The notes below the pieces were generated by a model. That model was not told where the DNA came from. It did not search any database and was given only the letters and a program-made list of their open reading frames with translations. The translations under genes and the position numbers were made by a program. DNA of 43,104 nt from Escherichia coli (GTDB taxonomy: Bacteria; Pseudomonadota; Gammaproteobacteria; Enterobacterales; Enterobacteriaceae), in assembly GCF_003334385.1 (NCBI RefSeq), contig NZ_QOWN01000036.1; one strand, 5' to 3'. Shown piece by piece: positions 1 to 39,905 of this stretch; position 1 is the first letter of the stretch; every line of letters starts with the position of its first letter.

Positions 1-71
1 GGTGATGACGGGATCGAACCGCCGACCCCCTCCTTGTAAGGGAGGTGCTCTCCCAGCTGAGCTAATCACCC
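1..71 (-). tRNA. valT: tRNA-Val (anticodon UAC), 3' end truncated by window edge
   Basis: Reverse complement of 1-71 gives GGGTGATTAGCTCAGCTGGGAGAGCACCTCCCTTACAAGGAGGGGGTCGGCGGTTCGATCCCGTCATCACC, a cloverleaf with anticodon loop CTTACAA; the last discriminator/CCA bases lie outside the window. Confidence 0.9.
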
Positions 72-107
72 GATACTACGCTGGATACTACAACTAACTA
101 TGTTAGT

Positions 108-124
108 GGTGGGTCGTGCAGGAT
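108..124 (-). repeat. 17-bp copy of the 3' end of tRNA-Lys (tggtgggtcgtgcagga) in the lysT-valT spacer
   Basis: Exact match of 108-124 to 207-223 (the 3' end of the lysT gene), not followed by the rest of a tRNA. Confidence 0.6.
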
Positions 125-206
125 GACTCGACTTCGTCTCGCCCTTCGGGCCGTTGCTCATGCAACGTTATCCTTCACGTTTTACTACCGCTTCCACCTT
201 AGCGAT

Positions 207-282
207 TGGTGGGTCGTGCAGGATTCGAACCTGCGACCAATTGATTAAAAGTCAACTGCTCTACCAACTGAGCTAACGACCC
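207..282 (-). tRNA. lysT: tRNA-Lys (anticodon UUU)
   Basis: Reverse complement is GGGTCGTTAGCTCAGTTGGTAGAGCAGTTGACTTTTAATCAATTGGTCGCAGGTTCGAATCCTGCACGACCCACCA, 76 nt, anticodon loop CTTTTAA, CCA encoded. Confidence 0.93.
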
Positions 283-322
283 ACTTTTTCGTTGCTTTCG
301 GTTTGTTTGATATCCCGTGGCA

Positions 323-360
323 ACGGCGGCATATATTACTGATTTCAGACTTGAGCGCAA
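323..360 (-). promoter_or_regulatory. Candidate sigma70 promoter for the lysT-valT tRNA operon
   Basis: On the minus strand: -35 TTGCGC (plus 355-360), 16-nt spacer, -10 TAATAT (plus 333-338), then a GC-rich discriminator (gccgccg) typical of stringently controlled tRNA promoters. Pattern-based only. Confidence 0.3.
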
Positions 361-446: not shown

Positions 447-1238
447 TTACATCGCGTTCAGACGTTTTTGTGCCTGTTTAGCGCCATCAGTACCAGGGTA
501 TTTACTGATAACCTGCTGGTATACGGCTTTCGCTTTTGCGGTGTCACCTTTGTCCTGCATGATGACGCCGACTTTAAACATCGCATCTGCAGCCTTTGGT
601 GACTTCGGATAGTTTTTCACTACCGAAGCAAAATAGTACGCCGCATCATCTTTTTTACCCTTGTTGTAGTTTAACTGACCCAGCCAATAATTGGCGTTTG
701 GCAGGTAAGTTGAATCAGGGTAATTTTTGATGAAATTCTGAAATGCCACCATTGCGTCATCCTGGCGGGATTTATCCTGCACCAGCGCAATAGCTGCATT
801 GTAATCCGTGTTTGCATTACCGCTTTTCACCGGCGCGCCAGCATTCGCAGTACCAGCATCAGCTGTCGGCGTCGTTGATGCCGCCGCACCGCTTTGATCG
901 CCGCTGGTTGATTGCGCCGCTGCACCACCGCTGCTGAGGCTGTCGATCTGCAACAGGATCTGCTTTTGCCGCTCCACGACCTGATTCAGTTGATACTGAT
1001 TTTCCTGAATCTGACCACGCAGGGAATCAATATCGGATTGATTATCAGAAAGTTGTTGCTGGAGTTGGGTTAAAAGCTGGCTGTGAGCATTAGAAATACG
1101 CTCAAGTTGAGTGACGCGGTCTTCGACCGAGCCTGAGCCGACACTACTGATTGGTGCCTGAGCAAAAGCGGCCCAGGGGGCCGCTATACCAACCAGTAAC
1201 GACAGACTCAATAGTTGATGTCTGAAGTTACTGCTCAT
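447..1238 (-). CDS. cpoB: Cell-division coordinator CpoB (YbgF), periplasmic TPR protein
   Basis: 263-aa ORF with signal peptide (MSSNFRHQLLSLSLLVGIAAPWAAFA), coiled-coil Q-rich region and C-terminal TPR-like repeats; last gene of the tol-pal cluster. Confidence 0.95.
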   Translation of the reverse strand: MSSNFRHQLLSLSLLVGIAAPWAAFAQAPISSVGSGSVEDRVTQLERISNAHSQLLTQLQQQLSDNQSDIDSLRGQIQENQYQLNQVVERQKQILLQIDSLSSGGAAAQSTSGDQSGAAASTTPTADAGTANAGAPVKSGNANTDYNAAIALVQDKSRQDDAMVAFQNFIKNYPDSTYLPNANYWLGQLNYNKGKKDDAAYYFASVVKNYPKSPKAADAMFKVGVIMQDKGDTAKAKAVYQQVISKYPGTDGAKQAQKRLNAM

Positions 1239-1247
1239 GCAATTCTC

Positions 1248-1793
<546 letters not shown>

Positions 1794-14960: not shown

Positions 14961-15683
14961 ATGGGACACAAACCCTTATACCGGCAGATTGCCGATCGCA
15001 TTCGTGAACAAATTGCGCGTGGCGAGCTTAAACCTGGCGATGCGTTACCCACTGAATCAGCGCTACAAACAGAGTTTGGCGTCAGCCGGGTTACGGTGCG
15101 TCAGGCTTTGCGCCAGCTAGTCGAGCAGCAGATCCTCGAAAGCATTCAGGGCAGCGGGACTTACGTCAAAGAAGAGCGGGTCAATTACGATATTTTTCAG
15201 TTAACCAGTTTTGATGAAAAACTGTCGGACCGTCACGTCGATACACACAGTGAAGTTCTGATATTCGAAGTGATTCCGGCTGACGATTTTCTTCAGCAAC
15301 AGCTACAAATCACCCCGCAGGATCGTGTGTGGCATGTGAAGCGCGTGCGCTATCGCAAGCAAAAGCCAATGGCGCTGGAAGAAACCTGGATGCCGCTTGC
15401 GTTGTTCCCGGATCTCACCTGGCAGGTCATGGAAAATTCGAAATATCACTTTATCGAAGAAGTGAAGAAAATGGTTATCGATCGTAGCGAACAGGAAATC
15501 ATTCCTCTGATGCCAACCGAAGAGATGAGCCGTCTGCTTAATATCAGCCAGACAAAGCCGATTCTTGAAAAAGTATCGCGTGGATATTTAGTTGATGGTC
15601 GGGTGTTTGAATATAGCCGCAACGCTTTTAATACCGATGACTATAAATTTACCCTGATAGCGCAGCGAAAATCATCGCGATAA
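14961..15683 (+). CDS. mngR: GntR/HutC-family transcriptional repressor MngR (FarR)
   Basis: 240-aa ORF with N-terminal winged-HTH (ESALQTEFGVSRVTVRQALRQL) and UTRA-type C-terminal domain; divergent from mngAB. Confidence 0.93.
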   Translation: MGHKPLYRQIADRIREQIARGELKPGDALPTESALQTEFGVSRVTVRQALRQLVEQQILESIQGSGTYVKEERVNYDIFQLTSFDEKLSDRHVDTHSEVLIFEVIPADDFLQQQLQITPQDRVWHVKRVRYRKQKPMALEETWMPLALFPDLTWQVMENSKYHFIEEVKKMVIDRSEQEIIPLMPTEEMSRLLNISQTKPILEKVSRGYLVDGRVFEYSRNAFNTDDYKFTLIAQRKSSR

Positions 15684-15686
15684 GCA

Positions 15687-15786
15687 CAAAAAAGGCCATC
15701 ATACGATGGCCAACCATGTCGAAACCGACAGCCCTTCGCCATTCCTGTAGAGGGAAGCGGCGAGGGCTATTTCTTATTACAGATAT
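15687..15786 (-). ncRNA. sdhX: Candidate 3'UTR-derived sRNA SdhX (RybD) downstream of sucD
   Basis: About 100 nt between the sucD stop and an intrinsic terminator (ggccatcgtatgatggcc followed by tttttt on the minus strand, 15687-15712). Assigned from memory of the K-12 annotation, not verified. Confidence 0.45.
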
Positions 15787-16656
15787 TTATTTCAGAACAG
15801 TTTTCAGTGCTTCACCGATATCCGCCAGGCTGCGAACGGTTTTCACGCCTGCGGCTTCCAGAGCAGCGAATTTCTCATCCGCAGTCCCTTTCCCACCGGC
15901 AATGATGGCACCCGCGTGGCCCATACGTTTGCCTTTCGGCGCAGTCACACCAGCGATGTAACCCACAACTGGCTTGGTAACGTGCTCTTTGATGTACGCA
16001 GCTGCTTCTTCTTCAGCGCTACCGCCGATCTCACCGATCATCACGATCGCTTCGGTCTGCGGATCTTTTTCGAACATTTCGAGAATGTCGATAAAGTTAG
16101 AGCCCGGGATCGGGTCACCGCCGATACCGACACAGGTCGACTGACCGAAACCGTAATCCGTGGTCTGTTTAACCGCTTCATAGGTCAGTGTACCGGAACG
16201 GGAAACGATACCCACTTTACCCGGTTTGTGAATGTGACCAGGCTGGATACCGATTTTGCATTCACCCGGAGTGATAACGCCTGGGCAGTTCGGGCCGATC
16301 ATACGAACGCCTGCTTCATCCAGCTTCACTTTCACGGTCAGCATATCCAGCGTCGGGATGCCTTCAGTGATGGTGATAATCAGTTTGATGCCTGCGTCGA
16401 TGGCTTCCAGAATGGAGTCTTTGCAGAACGGTGCTGGTACGTAGATAACAGAAGCGGTAGCGCCAGTGGCAGCAACGGCTTCACGCACGGTGTTGAACAC
16501 CGGCAGGCCGAGGTGGGTGGTGCCGCCTTTACCTGGGGTTACGCCGCCAACCATTTTAGTGCCGTATGCAATGGCCTGTTCTGAGTGGAAAGTCCCCTGG
16601 CTACCGGTAAAGCCCTGGCAGATAACCTTGGTGTTTTTATCGATTAAAATGGACAT
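15787..16656 (-). CDS. sucD: Succinyl-CoA synthetase alpha subunit
   Basis: 289-aa ORF recognised as SucD; 1-nt overlap with sucC. Confidence 0.95.
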
Positions 16657-17822
16657 TATTTCCCCTCCACTGCGGCAACAACCTGCTGAGCTGCATCCGT
16701 CAGACCTTTTGCTGCAATAATATTCAGGCCGCTGTCAGCCAGTTTCTTCGCGCCGAGTTCGGCGTTGTTACCTTCCAGACGTACCACGACCGGTACGTTA
16801 ACACCCACTTCTGCTACCGCGCCGATGATACCGTCAGCGATCAGGTCGCAACGAACGATACCGCCGAAGATGTTAACCAGAACGGCTTTCACTTTGTCGT
16901 CAGAGAGGATGATTTTGAACGCTTCGGTTACACGTTCTTTGGTTGCGCCGCCGCCAACGTCAAGGAAGTTAGCCGGTTCGCCGCCGTGCAGTTTAACGAT
17001 GTCCATCGTACCCATCGCCAGACCTGCGCCGTTAACCATACAACCGATGTTACCGTCCAGCGCAACGTAGTTCAGTTCCCACTGTGCAGCCTGTGCTTCA
17101 CGCGGATCTTCCTGCGACTGGTCACGCATTTCGCGCAGATCAGGCTGGCGGAACAGTGCGTTGCCGTCAGCGCCCAGTTTGCCGTCGAGGCAAATCAGAT
17201 CGCCCTGTTTGGTGATGACCAGCGGGTTGATTTCGATCAACGCCAGGTCGCGCTCCAGGAAAATGGTCGCCAGGCCCATGAAGATTTTGGTGAACTGCTG
17301 AACCAGTTTACCTTCCAGACCCAGTTTGAACGCCAGCTCGCGTCCCTGATACGGCATCGGGCCAGTCAGCGGATCAAGCGCAACTTTATGGATCAGGTGC
17401 GGAGTTTCTTCCGCCACTTTTTCGATTTCCACGCCGCCTTCGGTGGAGGCCATAAAGACCACACGACGGGAACTACGGTCAACAACGGCACCGAGATACA
17501 GCTCTTTAGCGATATCGGTCGCTGCTTCAACCAGAATCTGGTTAACCGGTTGGCCATTGGCATCTGTTTGATACGTTACCAGACGCTTGCCCAGCCAGTT
17601 TTCTGCAAAAGCACGGATGTCTTCTTTGCTGTTTACAACTTTCACACCGCCCGCTTTACCGCGGCCACCAGCGTGAACCTGACATTTCACTACCCACGGA
17701 CCGGCACCGATTTTTGAAGCGGCTTCTTCTGCTTCGCGCGGAGTAGTACAGGCATAACCCACCGGTGCTGGTAAGCCATAGCGGGCAAAAAGTTGTTTTG
17801 CCTGATATTCATGTAAGTTCAT
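16656..17822 (-). CDS. sucC: Succinyl-CoA synthetase beta subunit
   Basis: 388-aa ORF ([18 protein letters not shown]...), ATP-grasp; recognised as SucC. Confidence 0.95.
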
Positions 17823-17905
17823 GTGTTCTGTCCATCCTTCAGTAATCGTTATCTTTTAAACCGTAGACCGAATATTTCGTATCGCTTCCGGGCATTGTCG
17901 GTCAC

Positions 17906-18076
17906 CCGTAGGCCTGATAAGACACGTTAAACGTCACATCAGGCATCGCTTGTCGGATGCGGCGCTAGCGCCTTATCCGACCTACATTGGTGGTCCCGTA
18001 GGCCTGATAAGACGCGTCAGCGTCGCATCAGGCTTCAATTGCCGGAGAAGGCGATAATGCCTTATCCGGTCTACAG
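17906..18076. repeat. REP/BIME cluster in the sucB-sucC spacer
   Basis: Multiple gtaggcctgataagacgcg... and cggatgcggcg... / ccttatccg palindromic units within a 274-bp intergenic gap. Confidence 0.6.
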
Positions 18077-18096
18077 TGCAGGTGAAACTTAAACTA

Positions 18097-19314
18097 CTAC
18101 ACGTCCAGCAGCAGACGCGTCGGATCTTCCAGCAACTCTTTGATCGTTACCAGGAAGCCCACGGATTCGCGACCATCGATCAGACGGTGATCGTAGGACA
18201 GCGCCAGGTACATCATCGGCAGGATCTCAACCTGACCATTCACCGCCATCGGACGATCTTTGATAGCGTGCATACCCAGAATTGCGCTCTGCGGCGGGTT
18301 GATGATCGGCGTAGACATCAGGGAACCGAACACACCACCGTTGGTGATGGTGAAGTTACCACCGGTCAGATCTTCAACGGTCAGCTTGCCGTCACGGCCT
18401 TTGACTGCCAGCTCTTTGATTTTCTTCTCGATGTCTGCCATGCCGAGGGTATCGACATCACGCAGAACCGGCGTCACCAGGCCGCGCGGCGTAGAAACCG
18501 CCATGCTGACGTCGAAATAGTTGTGGTAAACCACGTCATCGCCGTCGATAGAAGCGTTCACTTCCGGGTAACGTTTCAGGGCTTCAACCACCGCTTTCAC
18601 GTAGAAGGACATAAAGCCCAGACGGATGCCGTGGCGTTTTTCAAACGCTTCACCGTACTGCTTACGCAGATCCATAATCGGCTTCATGTTGACTTCGTTG
18701 AACGTGGTCAGCATGGCGGTGGAGTTTTTCGCTTCCAGCAGACGCTCTGCCACACGCTTACGCAGGCGAGTCATCGGGACACGTTTTTCACTACGTGCAG
18801 CCAGAGCCGGTTGCGCCGCCGGAGCAGCCGCTGCCGGAGCAGACTCTTTCGCCGGGGCTTTCGCCAGATGTTTTTCCACATCTTCACGAGTCAGACGACC
18901 ACCCACACCGGTGCCTTTAATGGCGCTGGCGTCGAGATTGTGTTCAGCCAGCAGGCGACGGATCGCCGGGCTTAACGCATCGTTGTTTTGCTCTTCCAGA
19001 GACGCCTGCTGGCGTTGCGCCGGAGTGGACGCTTTCTCTTCAGATTTGGCGCTGGTTTCTTTACCGGCGCTGTTGCCTTCACGCAGGCGACCAAGGATCT
19101 GACGAGACGTTACCGTTGTACCTTCATCTTCCAGAACCGCATCCAGAATGCCGTCTGCTGATGCCGGTACTTCCAGTACCACTTTGTCAGTTTCGATTTC
19201 TACCAGCACTTCATCACGTACGACTGCGTCGCCGGGTTTTTTATGCCAGGTTGCGACGGTGGCATCGGCTACGGATTCAGGCAGGTCAGGGACCAGAATA
19301 TCTACGCTACTCAT
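18097..19314 (-). CDS. sucB: 2-oxoglutarate dehydrogenase E2 (dihydrolipoyl succinyltransferase)
   Basis: 405-aa ORF with N-terminal lipoyl domain (ETDKVVLEV), Ala/Pro linker and catalytic domain. Confidence 0.95.
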
Positions 19315-19328
19315 TGTGTATCCTTTAT

Positions 19329-22130
19329 TTATTCGACGTTCAGCGCGTCATTAACCAGATCTTGTTGCTGTTTCTGGTGAACGGACATATACCCTACCGC
19401 CGGAGAGGCGGAGGCCGGGCGGCCTGCATAACGCAGAGAAGCCCCAAACGGAATCACTTCACGGAAATGATGCTGGCTGCAGTACCATGCGCCCTGGTTG
19501 AGCGGCTCTTCCTGGCACCAGACAAAATCCTTGACGTGAGCAAACTGCTGCAACACTTCCTGCATCGCTTTATGCGGGAACGGGTAGAGTTGCTCGATAC
19601 GCACAATGGCGACATCGTGTTGATTGTTCTTACGACGCTGTTCCAGCAGGTCGTAATAAACCTTACCAGAACACATCACTACGCGCTTCACGCCCTTCGG
19701 ATCAAGCTCGTCGATTTCACCGATGGCTGGCAGGAAGGTGCCGTTCGCCAGTTCTTCGAGGCTGGAAACCGCCAGCGGATGACGCAGCAGGGATTTCGGC
19801 GACATCACGACCAGCGGACGACGCATCCCGCGCAGCGCCTGACGACGCAGCATGTGGTAAACCTGTGCCGGGGTAGACGGTACGCAAACCTGCATGTTTT
19901 GCTCAGCACAAAGTTGCAGATAACGTTCCAGACGCGCGGAGGAGTGCTCCGGCCCCTGCCCTTCGTAACCGTGCGGCAGCAACATCACCAGACCACACAT
20001 CCGGCCCCATTTCTGTTCGCCAGAGGAGATGAACTGGTCGATAACCACCTGCGCACCGTTGGCGAAGTCACCGAACTGCGCTTCCCAGATGGTCAGAGTG
20101 CGTGGTTCTGCGGTGGCATAACCATATTCAAACGCCAGCACTGCTTCTTCAGACAGTACGGAGTCCCAGACACGGAACGCGCCCTGCCCGTTATGGATAT
20201 GTTGCAGCGGCGTGTAAGTGGAACCGTTAGACTGGTTGTGGATCACCGCGTGGCGGTGGAAGAAGGTACCGCGACCGGAGTCTTCACCCGACAGGCGAAC
20301 CGGAATGCCTTCATCAACCAGCGTGGCGTAAGCGAGGTTTTCCGCACCGCCCCAGTCGAACAGTTTCTCACCGGCAGCCATCGCCTGGCGATCGCCATAA
20401 ATCTTGGCAACGCGAGACTGCATTTCAACTGCTTCCGGCACCGTGCTGATGCGTTTCGCCAGCTCCTGCAGGCGCTTCATCTCAACTTTGTTCGGGTACT
20501 CTTCGTCCCATTCGTGGTTGAGGTACGGCGACCAGGTGAAAGAGTGCATGTTCATCGGACGCCACTCTGCCACTACGCAATCGCCAGCATCCAGCGCATC
20601 GCGGTACAGGTTAACCATCTCGGTGGCATCTTCCAGCGTCGCCACTTTTTCCTGCTCCAGCTTGTCAGCGTAGATTTTGCGCGGTGTCGGATGTTTTTTG
20701 ATTTTCTGATACATCAGCGGCTGGGTTGCGCTCGGCTCGTCGGCTTCGTTGTGGCCGTGACGGCGGTAGCACACCAGGTCGATGAAGACATCACGTTTAA
20801 AGGTGTTACGGAAATCGAGCGCCAGACGGGTCACAAAGGCAACGGCTTCCGGATCGTCCGCGTTAACGTGGAAAATCGGGGCCTGAACCATCTTACCGAT
20901 ATCAGTACAGTACGGCGTAGAACGGGCATCCAGCGGATTAGAGGTGGTGAAACCAACCTGGTTGTTGATAACGATACGTACCGTACCGCCAACTTCATAA
21001 CCACGCGCTTTCGACATGTTCAGGGTTTCCTGAACCACGCCCTGCCCGGTCACTGCGGCGTCACCGTGGATGGTGATTGGCAGCACTTTGTTGCTGCTCG
21101 GCTCATCAAGTCTGTCCAGACGGGCACGAACAGAACCGATAACTACCGGGCTTACAATCTCAAGGTGAGACGGGTTAAACGCCAGCGCCAGGTGCACCAG
21201 GCCGCCATCGGTCTGGAAGTCAGACGAGAAGCCCATGTGGTATTTCACGTCACCCGTGCCGAGGTGTTCTTTATGTTTACCGGCGAACTCGTCGAACAAG
21301 TCTTGCGGTTTTTTACCCAGCACGTTCACCAGCACGTTCAGACGACCACGGTGCGCCATCCCGAGAACCACTTCGCGGGTGCCGCTGTTGCCAGCGTGGC
21401 GGATCATCTCTTTAAGCATCGGGATTAACGCGTCACCGCCTTCCAGCGAGAAGCGTTTTGCGCCAGGGAATTTTGCGCCGAGGTAACGTTCAAGACCTTC
21501 AGCGGCGGTCAGTTCGCTTAAGAAGCGTTTTTTCTCTTCGCTATTGAAAGTCGCGCGACCAGACTCGATACGCTGTTGGATCCAGCGTTTTTCTTCGGTG
21601 CTGGTAATGTGCATATACTCGGCACCAATCGGGCCGCAGTAGGTTTGCTTGAGGGCTTCCAGCAGCTCGCCGAGTTTCATGGTTTCTTTGCCGCTGGCAA
21701 ATGAACCGACGTTGAAGGTCTCCTGGAAGTCTGCTTCGGTCAGATCGTGGAAAGACGGATCCAGATCGGCCACTTTATCTTGCTGCCACAGTCCCAGCGG
21801 ATCGAGATTCGCATGCTGGTGACCACGGAAGCGGTATGCGTTAATGAGCTGCAGGACTTTAACCTGCTTCACATTGGTGTCAGGGTCGGAGATCGTTGAA
21901 GAGTAACGTGAAGCGTCTTTCGCCAGGCGGCGGAAATATTCACGCGTTTGAGAGTGGAATTGATCCGGTTTGACTCCCGTACCAGGTAACTGCTGGAACG
22001 TCGAACGCCAGTTAGCGTCAACCGAGTCAGGATCGGTTAAGAAGTCTTCATAGAGCTGTTCTATCCAGCTCTGGTTTGCGCCAGAGAGGTAAGAAGAGTC
22101 CAACCAGGCTTTCAAAGCGCTGTTCTGCAT
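19329..22130 (-). CDS. sucA: 2-oxoglutarate dehydrogenase E1 component
   Basis: 933-aa ORF recognised as SucA ([30 protein letters not shown]...). Confidence 0.95.
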
Positions 22131-22310
22131 CGTGATCCCTTAAGCATCTTTTTTATGCTTACTTCGCCGTGGATACTACCACGCACAGTGATGTGCGTGC
22201 CGGGGTTCACTTGCGAGCTCTTGTCTACGTAGTGGCTCGCGAAGGAACCTTTAAAAACTGTCTTAGTGTCAGGGGCAGTTTTTAAAGATTTCCTGCATTT
22301 CTTTGTTACG

Positions 22311-22428
22311 CCTGATGCGCTGCGCTTATCAGGCCTACGGGTAATGACTTGTAGGCCGGATAAGGCGTTCACGCCGCATCCGGCACTGGTTGCCTGATGC
22401 GACGCTTGCGCGTCTTATCAGGCCTACG
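22311..22428. repeat. REP/BIME cluster in the sdhB-sucA spacer
   Basis: cctgatgcgctgcgcttatcaggcctacg..., ggccggataaggcgttcacgccgcatccggc... and gcctgatgcgacgcttgcgcgtcttatcaggcctacgg palindromic units. Confidence 0.6.
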
Positions 22429-22430
22429 GT

Positions 22431-23147
22431 TTACGCATTACGTTGCAACAACATCGACTTGATATGGCCGATGGCGCGCGTCGGGTTCAGCCCCTTCGGA
22501 CATACACTGACGCAGTTCATGATGCTGTGACAGCGGAATACGCTGAATGCATCACTCAAACCGTCGAGGCGGCTGTCAGTCTCGGTATCACGGCTATCAA
22601 TCAGGAAACGATATGCCGCTAACAAGCCTGCCGGGCCGATAAACTTATCGGGATTCCACCAGAAAGACGGACAAGAGGTTGAACAACATGCGCAGAGAAT
22701 ACATTCATACAGCCCGTCGAGTTTTTCGCGCTGCTCTGGCATCTGTAAATGCTCGCGAGCTGGCGGATTTTGTCCATTATTCAACAGGTAAGGCTTAATT
22801 TTCTCATATTGCGCATAGAATTGTCCCATGTCTACCACCAAATCGCGGATCACCGGTAAACCTGGCAGCGGGCGAATCACAATCTTCTTGCCCGGCTGGT
22901 TGAGTGCCGAAATCGGGGTAATACAGGCCAGACCATTCTTGCCGTTCATGTTCAGACCGTCGGAACCGCACACACCTTCACGGCAGGAGCGGCGGAACGA
23001 CAGGCTGGGATCTTTCTCTTTTAGCTGGATAAGCGCATCCAGCAGCATCATGTCGCGACCTTCATCCGCTTCCAGGGTGTAATCCTGCATACGCGGAGCA
23101 TCATCAACATCCGGGTTATAGCGATAAATTGAAAACTCGAGTCTCAT
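22431..23147 (-). CDS. sdhB: Succinate dehydrogenase iron-sulfur subunit
   Basis: 238-aa ORF with Cys clusters for 2Fe-2S/4Fe-4S/3Fe-4S centres. Confidence 0.95.
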   Translation of the reverse strand: MRLEFSIYRYNPDVDDAPRMQDYTLEADEGRDMMLLDALIQLKEKDPSLSFRRSCREGVCGSDGLNMNGKNGLACITPISALNQPGKKIVIRPLPGLPVIRDLVVDMGQFYAQYEKIKPYLLNNGQNPPAREHLQMPEQREKLDGLYECILCACCSTSCPSFWWNPDKFIGPAGLLAAYRFLIDSRDTETDSRLDGLSDAFSVFRCHSIMNCVSVCPKGLNPTRAIGHIKSMLLQRNA

Positions 23148-23162
23148 TTTCCTGTCTCCGCA

Positions 23163-24929
23163 TTAGTAAGTACGAATCTTCGGCGGGAATGCCGGGCGCA
23201 GTTTCGGTTCCATGTTGACGCTTCGGCGCGTCATGGATTCCGACTCTGGCAGATACAGGGAGTGGCACAGCCAGTTTTCATCATCACGATCCGGGAAGTC
23301 GAAGCGGCTATGCGCGCCACGGCTTTCGGTACGGAAGTTGGCAGAAACAGCCGTTGCATACGCCGTTTCCATCAGGTTATCCAGTTCCAGGCACTCAACG
23401 CGCTGGGTGTTGAACTCGCTGGAAGTGTCATCCAGACGGGCATTTTTCAGACGCTCGCGGATCACTTTCAACTGCTCAAGCCCTTTCGCCATCGCATCAC
23501 CTTCACGGAAGACCGAGAAGTTATGCTGCATACATTCTTGCAGCGCTTTACGGATCGCCACCGGATCTTCACCGTTACGATTATTGTTCCAGCGGTTCAG
23601 GCGATCCAGAGACGCTTCAACATCAGACTCGCTGGCATCGCGCAGTGCGCCCTGCTCGGCGATAGACTCTTGCAGATGCAGACCTGCCGCGCGACCAAAG
23701 ACCACCAGGTCCAGCAGCGAGTTGCCGCCCAGACGGTTAGCGCCGTGTACCGATACACAAGCGATTTCACCAACGGCAAACAGTCCCGGAACAACCACAT
23801 CTTCGCCTTTCTCATTCACAGTCAGCGCCTGACCGGTAACTTTGGTCGGAATACCGCCCATCATGTAGTGACAGGTTGGGATAACCGGAATCGGCTCTTT
23901 CACCGGATCGACGTGAGCGAAGGTACGGGAAAGCTCCAGGATACCCGGCAGACGGGATTCGAGAACTTCTTTACCCAGGTGATCGAGTTTCAGTTTCGCG
24001 TGTGGCCCCCACGGACCATCACAGCCGCGACCTTCACGGATTTCGATCATGATGGAACGCGCAACCACGTCACGGCCCGCCAGGTCTTTGGCGTTCGGCG
24101 CATAACGCTCCATAAAACGTTCGCCATGTTTGTTCAGCAGATAACCGCCTTCACCACGGCAACCTTCGGTGACCAGTACGCCCGCACCGGCAATGCCGGT
24201 CGGGTGGAACTGCCACATTTCCATATCCTGCACCGGTACGCCGGCACGGATAGCCATGCCGACACCGTCGCCGGTGTTAATGTGGGCGTTGGTGGTGGAC
24301 TGATAAATACGCCCTGCTCCGCCAGTCGCCAGCACGGTAGCGCGGGCTTTGAAATAAACCACTTCACCGGTTTCGATGCACAGTGCGGTACAACCCACCA
24401 CCGCGCCATCCTGGTTTTTCACCAGATCCAGCGCATACCACTCGGAGAAAATGGTGGTGTGGTTTTTCAGGTTCTGCTGATAAAGCGTGTGCAACAGTGC
24501 GTGACCGGTACGGTCAGCTGCTGCCGCAGTGCGTGCCGCCTGCTCGCCGCCGAAGTTTTTCGACTGACCGCCAAACGGACGTTGATAGATACGACCATCA
24601 TCGAGACGCGAGAACGGCAGGCCCATGTGTTCGAGTTCCAGAATCGCTTCCGGCCCGGTTTTACACATATATTCAATCGCGTCCTGGTCACCGATATAGT
24701 CCGACCCTTTCACGGTGTCGTACATATGCCATTCCCAGTTATCTTCATGGGTATTACCCAGCGCAACGGTAATGCCGCCTTGCGCAGAAACGGTATGGGA
24801 ACGGGTCGGGAAGACTTTAGAGAGCAGCGCACAGGTCTGGCCGCTCTGGGAAATTTGCAGCGCCGCGCGCATACCTGCGCCACCGGCACCAATCACAACT
24901 GCATCAAATTCTCTGACTGGCAATTTCAT
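23163..24929 (-). CDS. sdhA: Succinate dehydrogenase flavoprotein subunit
   Basis: 588 aa from [24 protein letters not shown] (FAD-binding GxGxxG); the track ORF adds 4 upstream codons. 1-nt stop/start overlap with sdhD. Confidence 0.95.
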
Positions 24930-25276
24930 CACACACCCCACACCACAACGAATCCATAAATCACGTAAACCACCAGTGCAACGACAATCACCAGTTGCAG
25001 CATCAGGCGCAAAGCCAGCGGTTTAACGTAGTCGGTCAACACCTGCCACATGCCGATCCAGGCATGGATCAAGATAGAAAACAGCGCCAGCAGGGTGAAC
25101 ACTTTGGTGAACGCAGAGGCGAAGAAACCGATCCAGACTTCATATGTCAGCTCGCCACTGGTAGCGAAAAAACCGACCATATAAATGATGTAGAGCGTCA
25201 GAACGATAGCGGTAGCGCGAACGAGGATGAAATCATGTACGCCATTGCGTCCTAATGCGGAGGCGTTGCTTACCAT
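24929..25276 (-). CDS. sdhD: Succinate dehydrogenase membrane anchor subunit
   Basis: 115-aa hydrophobic ORF between sdhC and sdhA. Confidence 0.93.
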
Positions 25277-25659
25277 ACGAGGACTCCTGCGAGAAGTGAA
25301 AGCACGACAGTAATAACAAAGGAGATTTTGGCGGAGCGTTTACCCGCTTCGAATGTTTCTTCCAGATAGCCAAAATCCATCATCATGTGGCGAATACCTA
25401 CGACGACGTGATACGCCAGAGCGGTAAGGATGCCCCACATGATAAATTTGACGAAGAAGCTGCCCATAATCGCGGAAGCTTGCTCGAAACCTTCAGGGGA
25501 AGAGAGGCTGGTACCCAGAAGCCACAGCAGGATGCCCACTGCAACAAAGGTGATCACACCGGAAACGCGATGGAGAATGGACGCTATCGCCGTGATGGGG
25601 AACCGGATGGTCTGTAGGTCCAGATTAACAGGTCTTTGTTTTTTCACATTTCTTATCAT
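25270..25659 (-). CDS. sdhC: Succinate dehydrogenase cytochrome b556 subunit
   Basis: 129 aa from [31 protein letters not shown]; the track ORF has a 5-codon upstream extension. Confidence 0.9.
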
Positions 25660-26367
25660 GAATAACGCCCACATGCTGTTCTTATTATTCCCTGGGGACT
25701 ACGGGCACAGAGGTTAACTTTCTGTTACCTGGAGACGTCGGGATTTCCTTCCTCCGGTCTGCTTGCGGGTCAGACAGCGTCCTTTCTATAACTGCGCGTC
25801 ATGCAAAACACTGCTTCCAGATGCGAAAACGACACGTTACAACGCTGGGTGGCTCGGGATTGCAGGGTGTTCCGGAGACCTGGCGGCAGTATAGGCTGTT
25901 CACAAAATCATTACAATTAACCTACATATAGTTTGTCGGGTTTTATCCTGAACAGTGATCCAGGTCACGATAACAACATTTATTTAATTTTTAATCATCT
26001 AATTTGACAATCATTCAACAAAGTTGTTACAAACATTACCAGGAAAAGCATATAATGCGTAAAAGTTATGAAGTCGGTATTTCACCTAAGATTAACTTAT
26101 GTAACAGTGTGGAAGTATTGACCAATTCATTCGGGACAGTTATTAGTGGTAGACAAGTTTAATAATTCGGATTGCTAAGTACTTGATTCGCCATTTATTC
26201 GTCATCAATGGATCCTTTACCTGCAAGCGCCCAGAGCTCTGTACCCAGGTTTTCCCCTCTTTCACAGAGCGGCGAGCCAAATAAAAAACGGGTAAAGCCA
26301 GGTTGATGTGCGAAGGCAAATTTAAGTTCCGGCAGTCTTACGCAATAAGGCGCTAAGGAGACCTTAA
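25660..26367. promoter_or_regulatory. Divergent sdhC / gltA control region
   Basis: 708-bp AT-rich spacer between divergently oriented sdhC and gltA; known to carry promoters for both under ArcA/CRP/FNR control, and the sdhC leader is an sRNA target. Individual sites not mapped here. Confidence 0.6.
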
Positions 26368-39775: not shown

Positions 39776-39905
39776 GCCTGATGCGACGCTTGACGCGTCT
39801 TATCAGGCCTACGTATTTCCTGCAATTTATTGAATTTGCACAAATTTGTAGGCTGGATAAGGCGTTCACGCCGCATCCGGCATCTGGGCTCGATTGCCTG
39901 ACGCG
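39776..39905. repeat. REP/BIME (RIP-like) element in the convergent dtpD-phr spacer
   Basis: gcctgatgcgacgcttgacgcgtcttatcaggcctac and tgtaggctggataaggcgttcacgccgcatccggcat palindromes flanking ctgcaatttattgaatttgc. Confidence 0.6.

Follow-up and report, generated by a model that had tools for sequence, protein, structure and literature searches.

The DNA analysed here, a stretch of 43,104 nucleotides that we call the window, is Escherichia coli chromosome in reversed orientation relative to MG1655. Its minus strand carries the open reading frames of the sdhCDAB-sucABCD operon (15787..25674), with sucC, sucB, sucA, sdhB, sdhA, sdhD and sdhC lying upstream of sucD in the order and with the sizes given by the MG1655 feature table. 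The operon closes with the TAA stop codon of sucD (15789..15787), after which the minus strand reads AUAUCUGUAAUAAGAAAUAGCCCUCGCCGCUUCCCUCUACAGGAAUGGCGAAGGGCUGUCGGUUUCGACAUGGUUGGCCAUCGUAUGAUGGCCUUUUUUGU, and mngR converges on this interval from the plus strand (Table 1). A sequence-only reading of the interval had proposed, from its position, that it encodes the small RNA (sRNA) SdhX, formerly RybD.

We aligned the interval to the curated MG1655 record. Window positions 15686..15786 (-) are identical at 101 of 101 bases to the curated ncRNA gene sdhX (b4764; NC_000913.3, 765050..765150), and every aligned base remains the same over 15680..15800 (-), which includes the sdhX flanks. The MG1655 feature, whose text reads 'sdhX, b4764, small regulatory RNA SdhX', is located between sucD (end at 765049) and mngR (765153..765875, minus strand), and the full identity together with the same flanking genes bears out the proposal. 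A sequence match to SdhX was thus found, since the seed, G62, C34 and the target duplexes described below are present along with the full identity. The first base of sdhX (15786) directly follows the sucD stop codon on the same strand; the sequence-only reading had given the gene as 15687..15786, with a correct 5' end and a 3' end 1 nt short of the curated 15686. It had also held that an sRNA is described at this position in E. coli, and a stable RNA is indeed documented in both E. coli and Salmonella (PMC6393394, PMC9438474, PMC7213987). Judged by its sequence, the segment is the known, curated sRNA SdhX: it shares position, mngR neighbour, seed, terminator and target sites with K-12 MG1655 b4764, and no difference from the K-12 reference was detected.

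Table 1. Coordinates of the features at the sucD-mngR junction of the window.
Feature	Position	Strand	Basis
sdhX (RybD) sRNA gene, long form ~101 nt	15686..15786	-	101/101 identity to b4764; MFE -41.3 kcal/mol, z -4.7
sucD, 289-aa ORF, last gene of sdhCDAB-sucABCD	15787..16656	-	ORF list; RefSeq annotation under 100% matches; MG1655 operon layout
mngR, 240-aa ORF, convergent neighbour (context only, outside the sRNA)	14961..15683	+	ORF list; annotation
5' stem-loop of the long form, SdhX nt 19-57, lineage-variable part of the 3' UTR	15730..15768	-	Predicted structure; hypervariable between genera
katG-pairing site, SdhX nt 29-42 including C34, Escherichia-specific	15745..15758	-	Recomputed 14-bp duplex
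Probable RNase E site GG↓UUU, SdhX nt 62/63	15724..15725	-	Sole full RN↓WUU match; predicted product agrees with the published ~38-nt short form
Seed UUCGACAUGGU, SdhX nt 64-74 (core CGACAU, 15721..15716)	15713..15723	-	Identical to the published seed
Rho-independent terminator: 7-bp stem GGCCAUC/GAUGGCC, 4-nt loop, U6 tail	15688..15711	-	Terminator scan; fold; covariation

The strong minus-strand intrinsic terminator that had been noticed about 100 nt after the sucD stop is real, with a 7-bp stem and a T6 run. Its hairpin, GGCCATCGTATGATGGCC (15711..15694), has five G-C pairs in the stem and is followed by TTTTTT (15693..15688), and a terminator scan of 15000..16700 returned 15711..15688 as the sole terminator-like site. 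None of 200 shuffles was as stable as the 101-nt RNA, the shuffled sequences folding at -26.1 +/- 3.2 kcal/mol. This element is the operon terminator and presumably also the Hfq-binding 3' module; the features looked for in connection with Hfq binding, a terminator hairpin with a U6 tail, are present in the sequence. The tail was also said to abut the mngR stop, and the T-run does end 4 nt from the mngR stop codon, which is itself 2 nt from the annotated 3' end of sdhX. On the plus strand, the region 3' of the mngR stop (15684..15716) reads as the hairpin followed by AACCATG in place of a T-run, so the hairpin is not a canonical terminator for mngR, and we rejected the idea of a bidirectional terminator serving both genes. 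Because of that same AACCATG, mngR has no obvious intrinsic terminator, and we speculate that its transcripts may read antisense through sdhX.

The seed UUCGACAUGGU ends 1 nt before the terminator stem. In published work, SdhX base-pairs with ackA mRNA across the AUG and the second codon, UCG, and so represses it, a mechanism confirmed by compensatory mutations (PMC6393394). The E. coli RNA also represses fdoG by way of G62, for which fdoG C-13G compensates, and katG by way of a non-conserved upstream region of SdhX, probed with C34G, in a '14-base pair nearly perfect' duplex (PMC6393394). Hfq-CLASH in E. coli recovered SdhX-ackA and SdhX-katG chimeras (PMC7213987), and De Mets et al. 2019, as summarised in a review (PMC9438474), describe discoordinate repression, of ackA but not of pta. 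We searched SdhX for contiguous helices with the 5' regions of MG1655 ackA, katG and fdoG. Positions -2..+8 of ackA (CCAUGUCGAG) pair with SdhX nt 64-73 in 10 bp with one G.U, covering the start codon and the second codon (UCG). For fdoG, -22..-13 (AUGUCGAAAC) pairs with nt 62-71 in 10 Watson-Crick bp, placing G62 (window 15725) opposite C-13, and for katG, -20..-7 (CUGUAGAGGGGAGC) pairs with nt 29-42, which include C34 (window 15753), in 14 bp with one G.U.

These helices are exactly the published ackA, fdoG and katG interactions. Shuffled 100-nt targets reached the same duplex length in 51 of 2000 cases for ackA, 66 of 2000 for fdoG and 6 of 2000 for katG, so that the 10-bp ackA and fdoG duplexes, at about 2.5-3% of shuffles, are by themselves only modestly unlikely by chance and no more than suggestive. 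The weight of the recomputed duplexes is in their exact agreement with pairs that have been verified by mutation. Whole-molecule RNAduplex runs of SdhX against the target 5' regions scored shuffled targets equally well; this result is uninformative because intramolecular structure is ignored, and the contiguous-helix search was used instead.

Since the conserved core of 6-11 nt is too short to serve as a DNA pattern across genera, the SucD protein was used as an anchor in one-genome-per-species contigs, and the DNA after each sucD stop was analysed at 80 loci from other species. A module consisting of TTCGACATG, one or two variable bases, TTGG, a hairpin and T6 or longer occurred at 22 of the 80 sucD loci. 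It was found in E. albertii, Citrobacter, Enterobacter, Kluyvera, Phytobacter, Pluralibacter, Superficieibacter, Mangrovibacter and Cedecea, and also in three of four Serratia, Dickeya, two Rahnella, Hafnia and two soil or metagenome-assembled (MAG) genomes. Its seed begins between 17 and 136 nt past the sucD stop, and the module keeps a fixed position behind upstream UTR sequence that is unrelated and hypervariable. Among the same 80 loci, the module was not found in Pantoea, Erwinia, Tatumella, Rosenbergiella, Photorhabdus, Arsenophonus, Acerihabitans or Budvicia, and none of the 37 loci from outside Enterobacterales had it, all 37 showing a plain terminator only. This distribution among sucD 3' UTRs (L027, L029-L041, L043-L045, L047 and L055) implies that the module was either lost in some families of Enterobacterales or gained several times.

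Within an alignment of 23 module sequences, no base of GACAU varies, and the C that opens the core is replaced, by T, in one soil MAG only (UGACAU). The terminator stem covaries: 100% of the cells are paired, double changes occur at four of the seven pairs, and 0 of 500 shuffles reached the observed score. In a control with the stem slid to other registers, only 22-62% of cells paired. In published comparisons, conservation among enterics was confined to the core CGACAU and the terminal U stretch (PMC6393394), and our comparative data are an independent reproduction of that picture of a short conserved core with a hypervariable extension.

Several loci depart from the common form. Yersinia artesiana (L047) has GTTCGACAC beside a hairpin that lacks a T-run, and Enterobacter sp. 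BIGb0383 (L020) carries a diverged seed, GCGACTTAAC. Many Enterobacteriaceae (L009, L011-L015, L017, L018, L020 and L022) have another 5' hairpin, CTGCTCCC, a loop and then GGGAGC, within the first ~30 nt past the sucD stop. This hairpin is unrelated to the AGCCCT...AGGGCT stem of E. coli and Citrobacter, and it could be an RNase-protective or processing-related structure.

[quoted passage not shown] A hairpin and T-run follow shortly after sucD at every locus examined, the 37 outside Enterobacterales included, and a terminator alone is therefore to be expected at this position. A passive terminator does not, however, account for an 11-nt motif directly 5' of the hairpin that is kept across genera within an otherwise hypervariable UTR, or for the complementarity of that motif to the ackA start region, and it is contradicted by the published compensatory mutations and base-pairing regulation (PMC6393394). 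We consider it very improbable and favour SdhX as a trans-acting regulator.

SdhX was first found as an Hfq-bound E. coli transcript (Miyakoshi et al., PMC6393394). It is released by RNase E processing of the ~10-kb sdhCDAB-sucABCD mRNA and has two forms, a long one and one of 38 nt, with the seed just 5' of the terminator (PMC6393394); in E. coli, the two forms are given as ~101 and 38 nt (review, PMC9438474). Our search of the last 30 nt of sucD plus SdhX for RNase E sites, a check that the sequence-only reading had suggested, returned a single full motif match, G61 G62 / U63 U64 U65, whose product would be 37-38 nt long. The consensus used, RN↓WUU (arrow, cut), is reportedly that of Chao and colleagues from 2017. 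The exact cleavage position is probably GG↓UUU, which would give the ~38-nt form.

Alternatively, the sRNA could be made from its own promoter inside sucD, in the manner of MicL, and not by processing of the operon mRNA. SucD and SdhX levels are not always correlated (PMC6393394), as such a promoter would allow. Against this, SdhX is lost in rne-ts and its 5' ends have no transcription start site (PMC6393394), and a promoter scan of 15000..16700 detected no sigma-70-like site within ~400 nt upstream of sdhX. The sole match in that interval (16232..16205) is ~420 nt upstream, and such matches occur at chance frequency. The absence of a nearby promoter-like site is consistent with processing and not with independent transcription, and we give an internal promoter about as little chance as a purely passive terminator.

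With SdhX as a processed product of the operon, the sucD transcript would be its precursor. The ~10-kb sdhCDAB-sucABCD transcript would end at the hairpin and U6 (15711..15688), RNase E would cut the mRNA 3' end to give the ~101-nt form starting just after the sucD stop, and a second cut at GG↓UUU would probably give the ~38-nt form. Both forms would present a single-stranded seed directly 5' of the terminator, with the U-tail and hairpin binding Hfq. Pairing of the seed at the ackA start-codon region would block ackA translation, so that acetate kinase synthesis and TCA-cycle operon expression would be inversely coupled. Two further pairings would take place in E. coli, one between nt 62-71 and a site upstream of the fdoG ribosome-binding site, the other between nt 29-42 and the Shine-Dalgarno region of katG. 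Of this scheme, our sequence analysis establishes the identity to sdhX, its position, the terminator, the seed and the complementarity to the targets; RNase E processing, Hfq dependence and repression in vivo are taken from the literature (Miyakoshi 2018; De Mets 2019). We found no sequence evidence contrary to this explanation as a whole (operon 3' end, RNase E release, Hfq, and pairing with ackA, fdoG and katG), and we put its probability at about 0.96.

Within E. coli, the sdhX region was found in all 5426 of 5426 complete genomes, at an identity of at least 99% in 4291, 95-99% in 1129 and 90-95% in 7. Three variant loci that we aligned all keep the seed unchanged; their substitutions lie in one of two loops (the apical one of the 5' stem-loop, or that of the terminator) or are a C>U that leaves the terminator stem with a G.U pair. 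A 301-nt query spanning mngR was covered over at least 80% of its length in only 3883 of the 5426 genomes, and roughly one E. coli genome in four has other genes in place of mngR. The breakpoint of this variability lies just past the SdhX U-tail (window 15684..15688), making the sRNA terminator the edge of the conserved block. In CE10, a convergent RtcB-family gene whose stop codon overlaps the T-run replaces mngR, and in 'strain 9' a TPR pseudogene stands in place of mngR after sdhX (breakpoints at L002:1613-1641 and L003:1613-1641). The idea that a 33-aa ORF at 15641..15742 (-) encodes a small protein has next to no probability and was rejected. The ORF appears in the mechanical ORF list, but its ATG lies inside the predicted 5' stem-loop and it continues through the terminator onto the strand antisense to mngR; since the sequence past the T-run is replaced entirely in other E. 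coli lineages, the downstream half of the ORF is not conserved in the species. The peptide is not known from ribosome profiling or mass spectrometry.

A single genome of the 5426, FDAARGOS_944 (L004:1587-2394), carries an IS1 that entered after SdhX nt 73 and now stands between seed and terminator hairpin. The insertion parts the seed from the Hfq/terminator module and amounts to a natural disruption of sdhX, and it probably alters termination of the operon too.

The predicted fold of the long form raised the idea that its seed is masked. The core CGACA (nt 66-70) is predicted to pair with UGUCG (nt 57-61) in a 5-bp mini-hairpin whose loop holds the probable RNase E site (UUU), and the predicted probability of being unpaired at nt 66-69 is 0.04-0.18 in the long form vs more than 0.9 in the short form. 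UGUCG is an internal mimic of the AUGUCG site of ackA. The mini-hairpin might accordingly mask the seed of the long form, and RNase E cleavage to ~38 nt would then be an activating switch that unmasks it, a scheme we regard as unlikely. A comparable anti-seed, (A)UGUC, occurs in Enterobacter, Pluralibacter, Kluyvera and Superficieibacter, and seed accessibility is lower in the long than in the short form at most of the 22 loci. A masking helix of at least 5 bp with the immediately upstream sequence was found at only 8 of the 22 loci, with per-sequence shuffle frequencies of 0.08-0.32 and the positives being related lineages. Given these figures, and given that an unprocessable UUU>CCC mutant still regulates when overexpressed (PMC6393394), we rejected the mini-hairpin as a demonstrated conserved feature.

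[quoted passage not shown] It shares with E. coli the seed next to the terminator and the ackA target (PMC6393394). The two differ at nt 62, a G in E. coli and a U in Salmonella, and the G enables pairing with fdoG in E. coli (PMC6393394). The upstream katG-pairing region of E. coli SdhX is missing in Salmonella, whereas fumB and yfbV are targets in Salmonella only (PMC6393394). SdhX of the window has the E. coli versions, G62 and the katG-pairing region. CpxQ, NarS, MalH, GlnZ and SroC follow the same logic, with the mRNA terminator as Hfq module, release by RNase E and a seed just upstream (PMC9438474), but differ from SdhX in parental genes, seeds and targets. Among processed 3' UTR sRNAs, SdhX is unusual in that a very short core and the terminator are conserved and the remainder is hypervariable.

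As a textbook example, SdhX shows how the mRNA of a metabolic operon can hold a trans-acting regulator in its 3' end, and it connects expression of the TCA cycle with the metabolism of acetate and acetyl phosphate. Its recognition here concerns an RNA that is already known and adds no new biology; what it illustrates is that a real sRNA left unannotated by default can be recovered from position and terminator features alone. Complete E. coli genomes annotated by PGAP show sucD and the neighbouring gene under the match and never sdhX, which only the curated MG1655 record contains. Rfam 15 gave no match at sdhX at gathering thresholds, and at E <= 10 the region returned only a terminator-like isrD (17.3 bits vs a threshold of 37) and a spurious snoR9 (11 bits vs 90). 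The lack of an above-threshold match follows from there being no SdhX family in the library and is not evidence against membership. The gene thus falls into an annotation gap, with no Rfam model and no mark by PGAP, though it is present in all of the complete genomes.

The same Rfam search also marked two naRNA4/CssrE (REP-type) elements in the window, at 17911..17982 (-) and 22354..22424 (+), with scores that exceed the gathering threshold; both lie within the sdhCDAB-sucABCD operon, between sucB and sucC and between sdhB and sucA. At the left edge of the window, 1..347 (-) holds two tRNA genes and an RtT repeat (1..282, -). An intercistronic CpoB/ybgF RNA thermometer lies at 1209..1347 (-; 142 bits), and ES036/CssrF lies at 39805..39847 (-; 75 bits).
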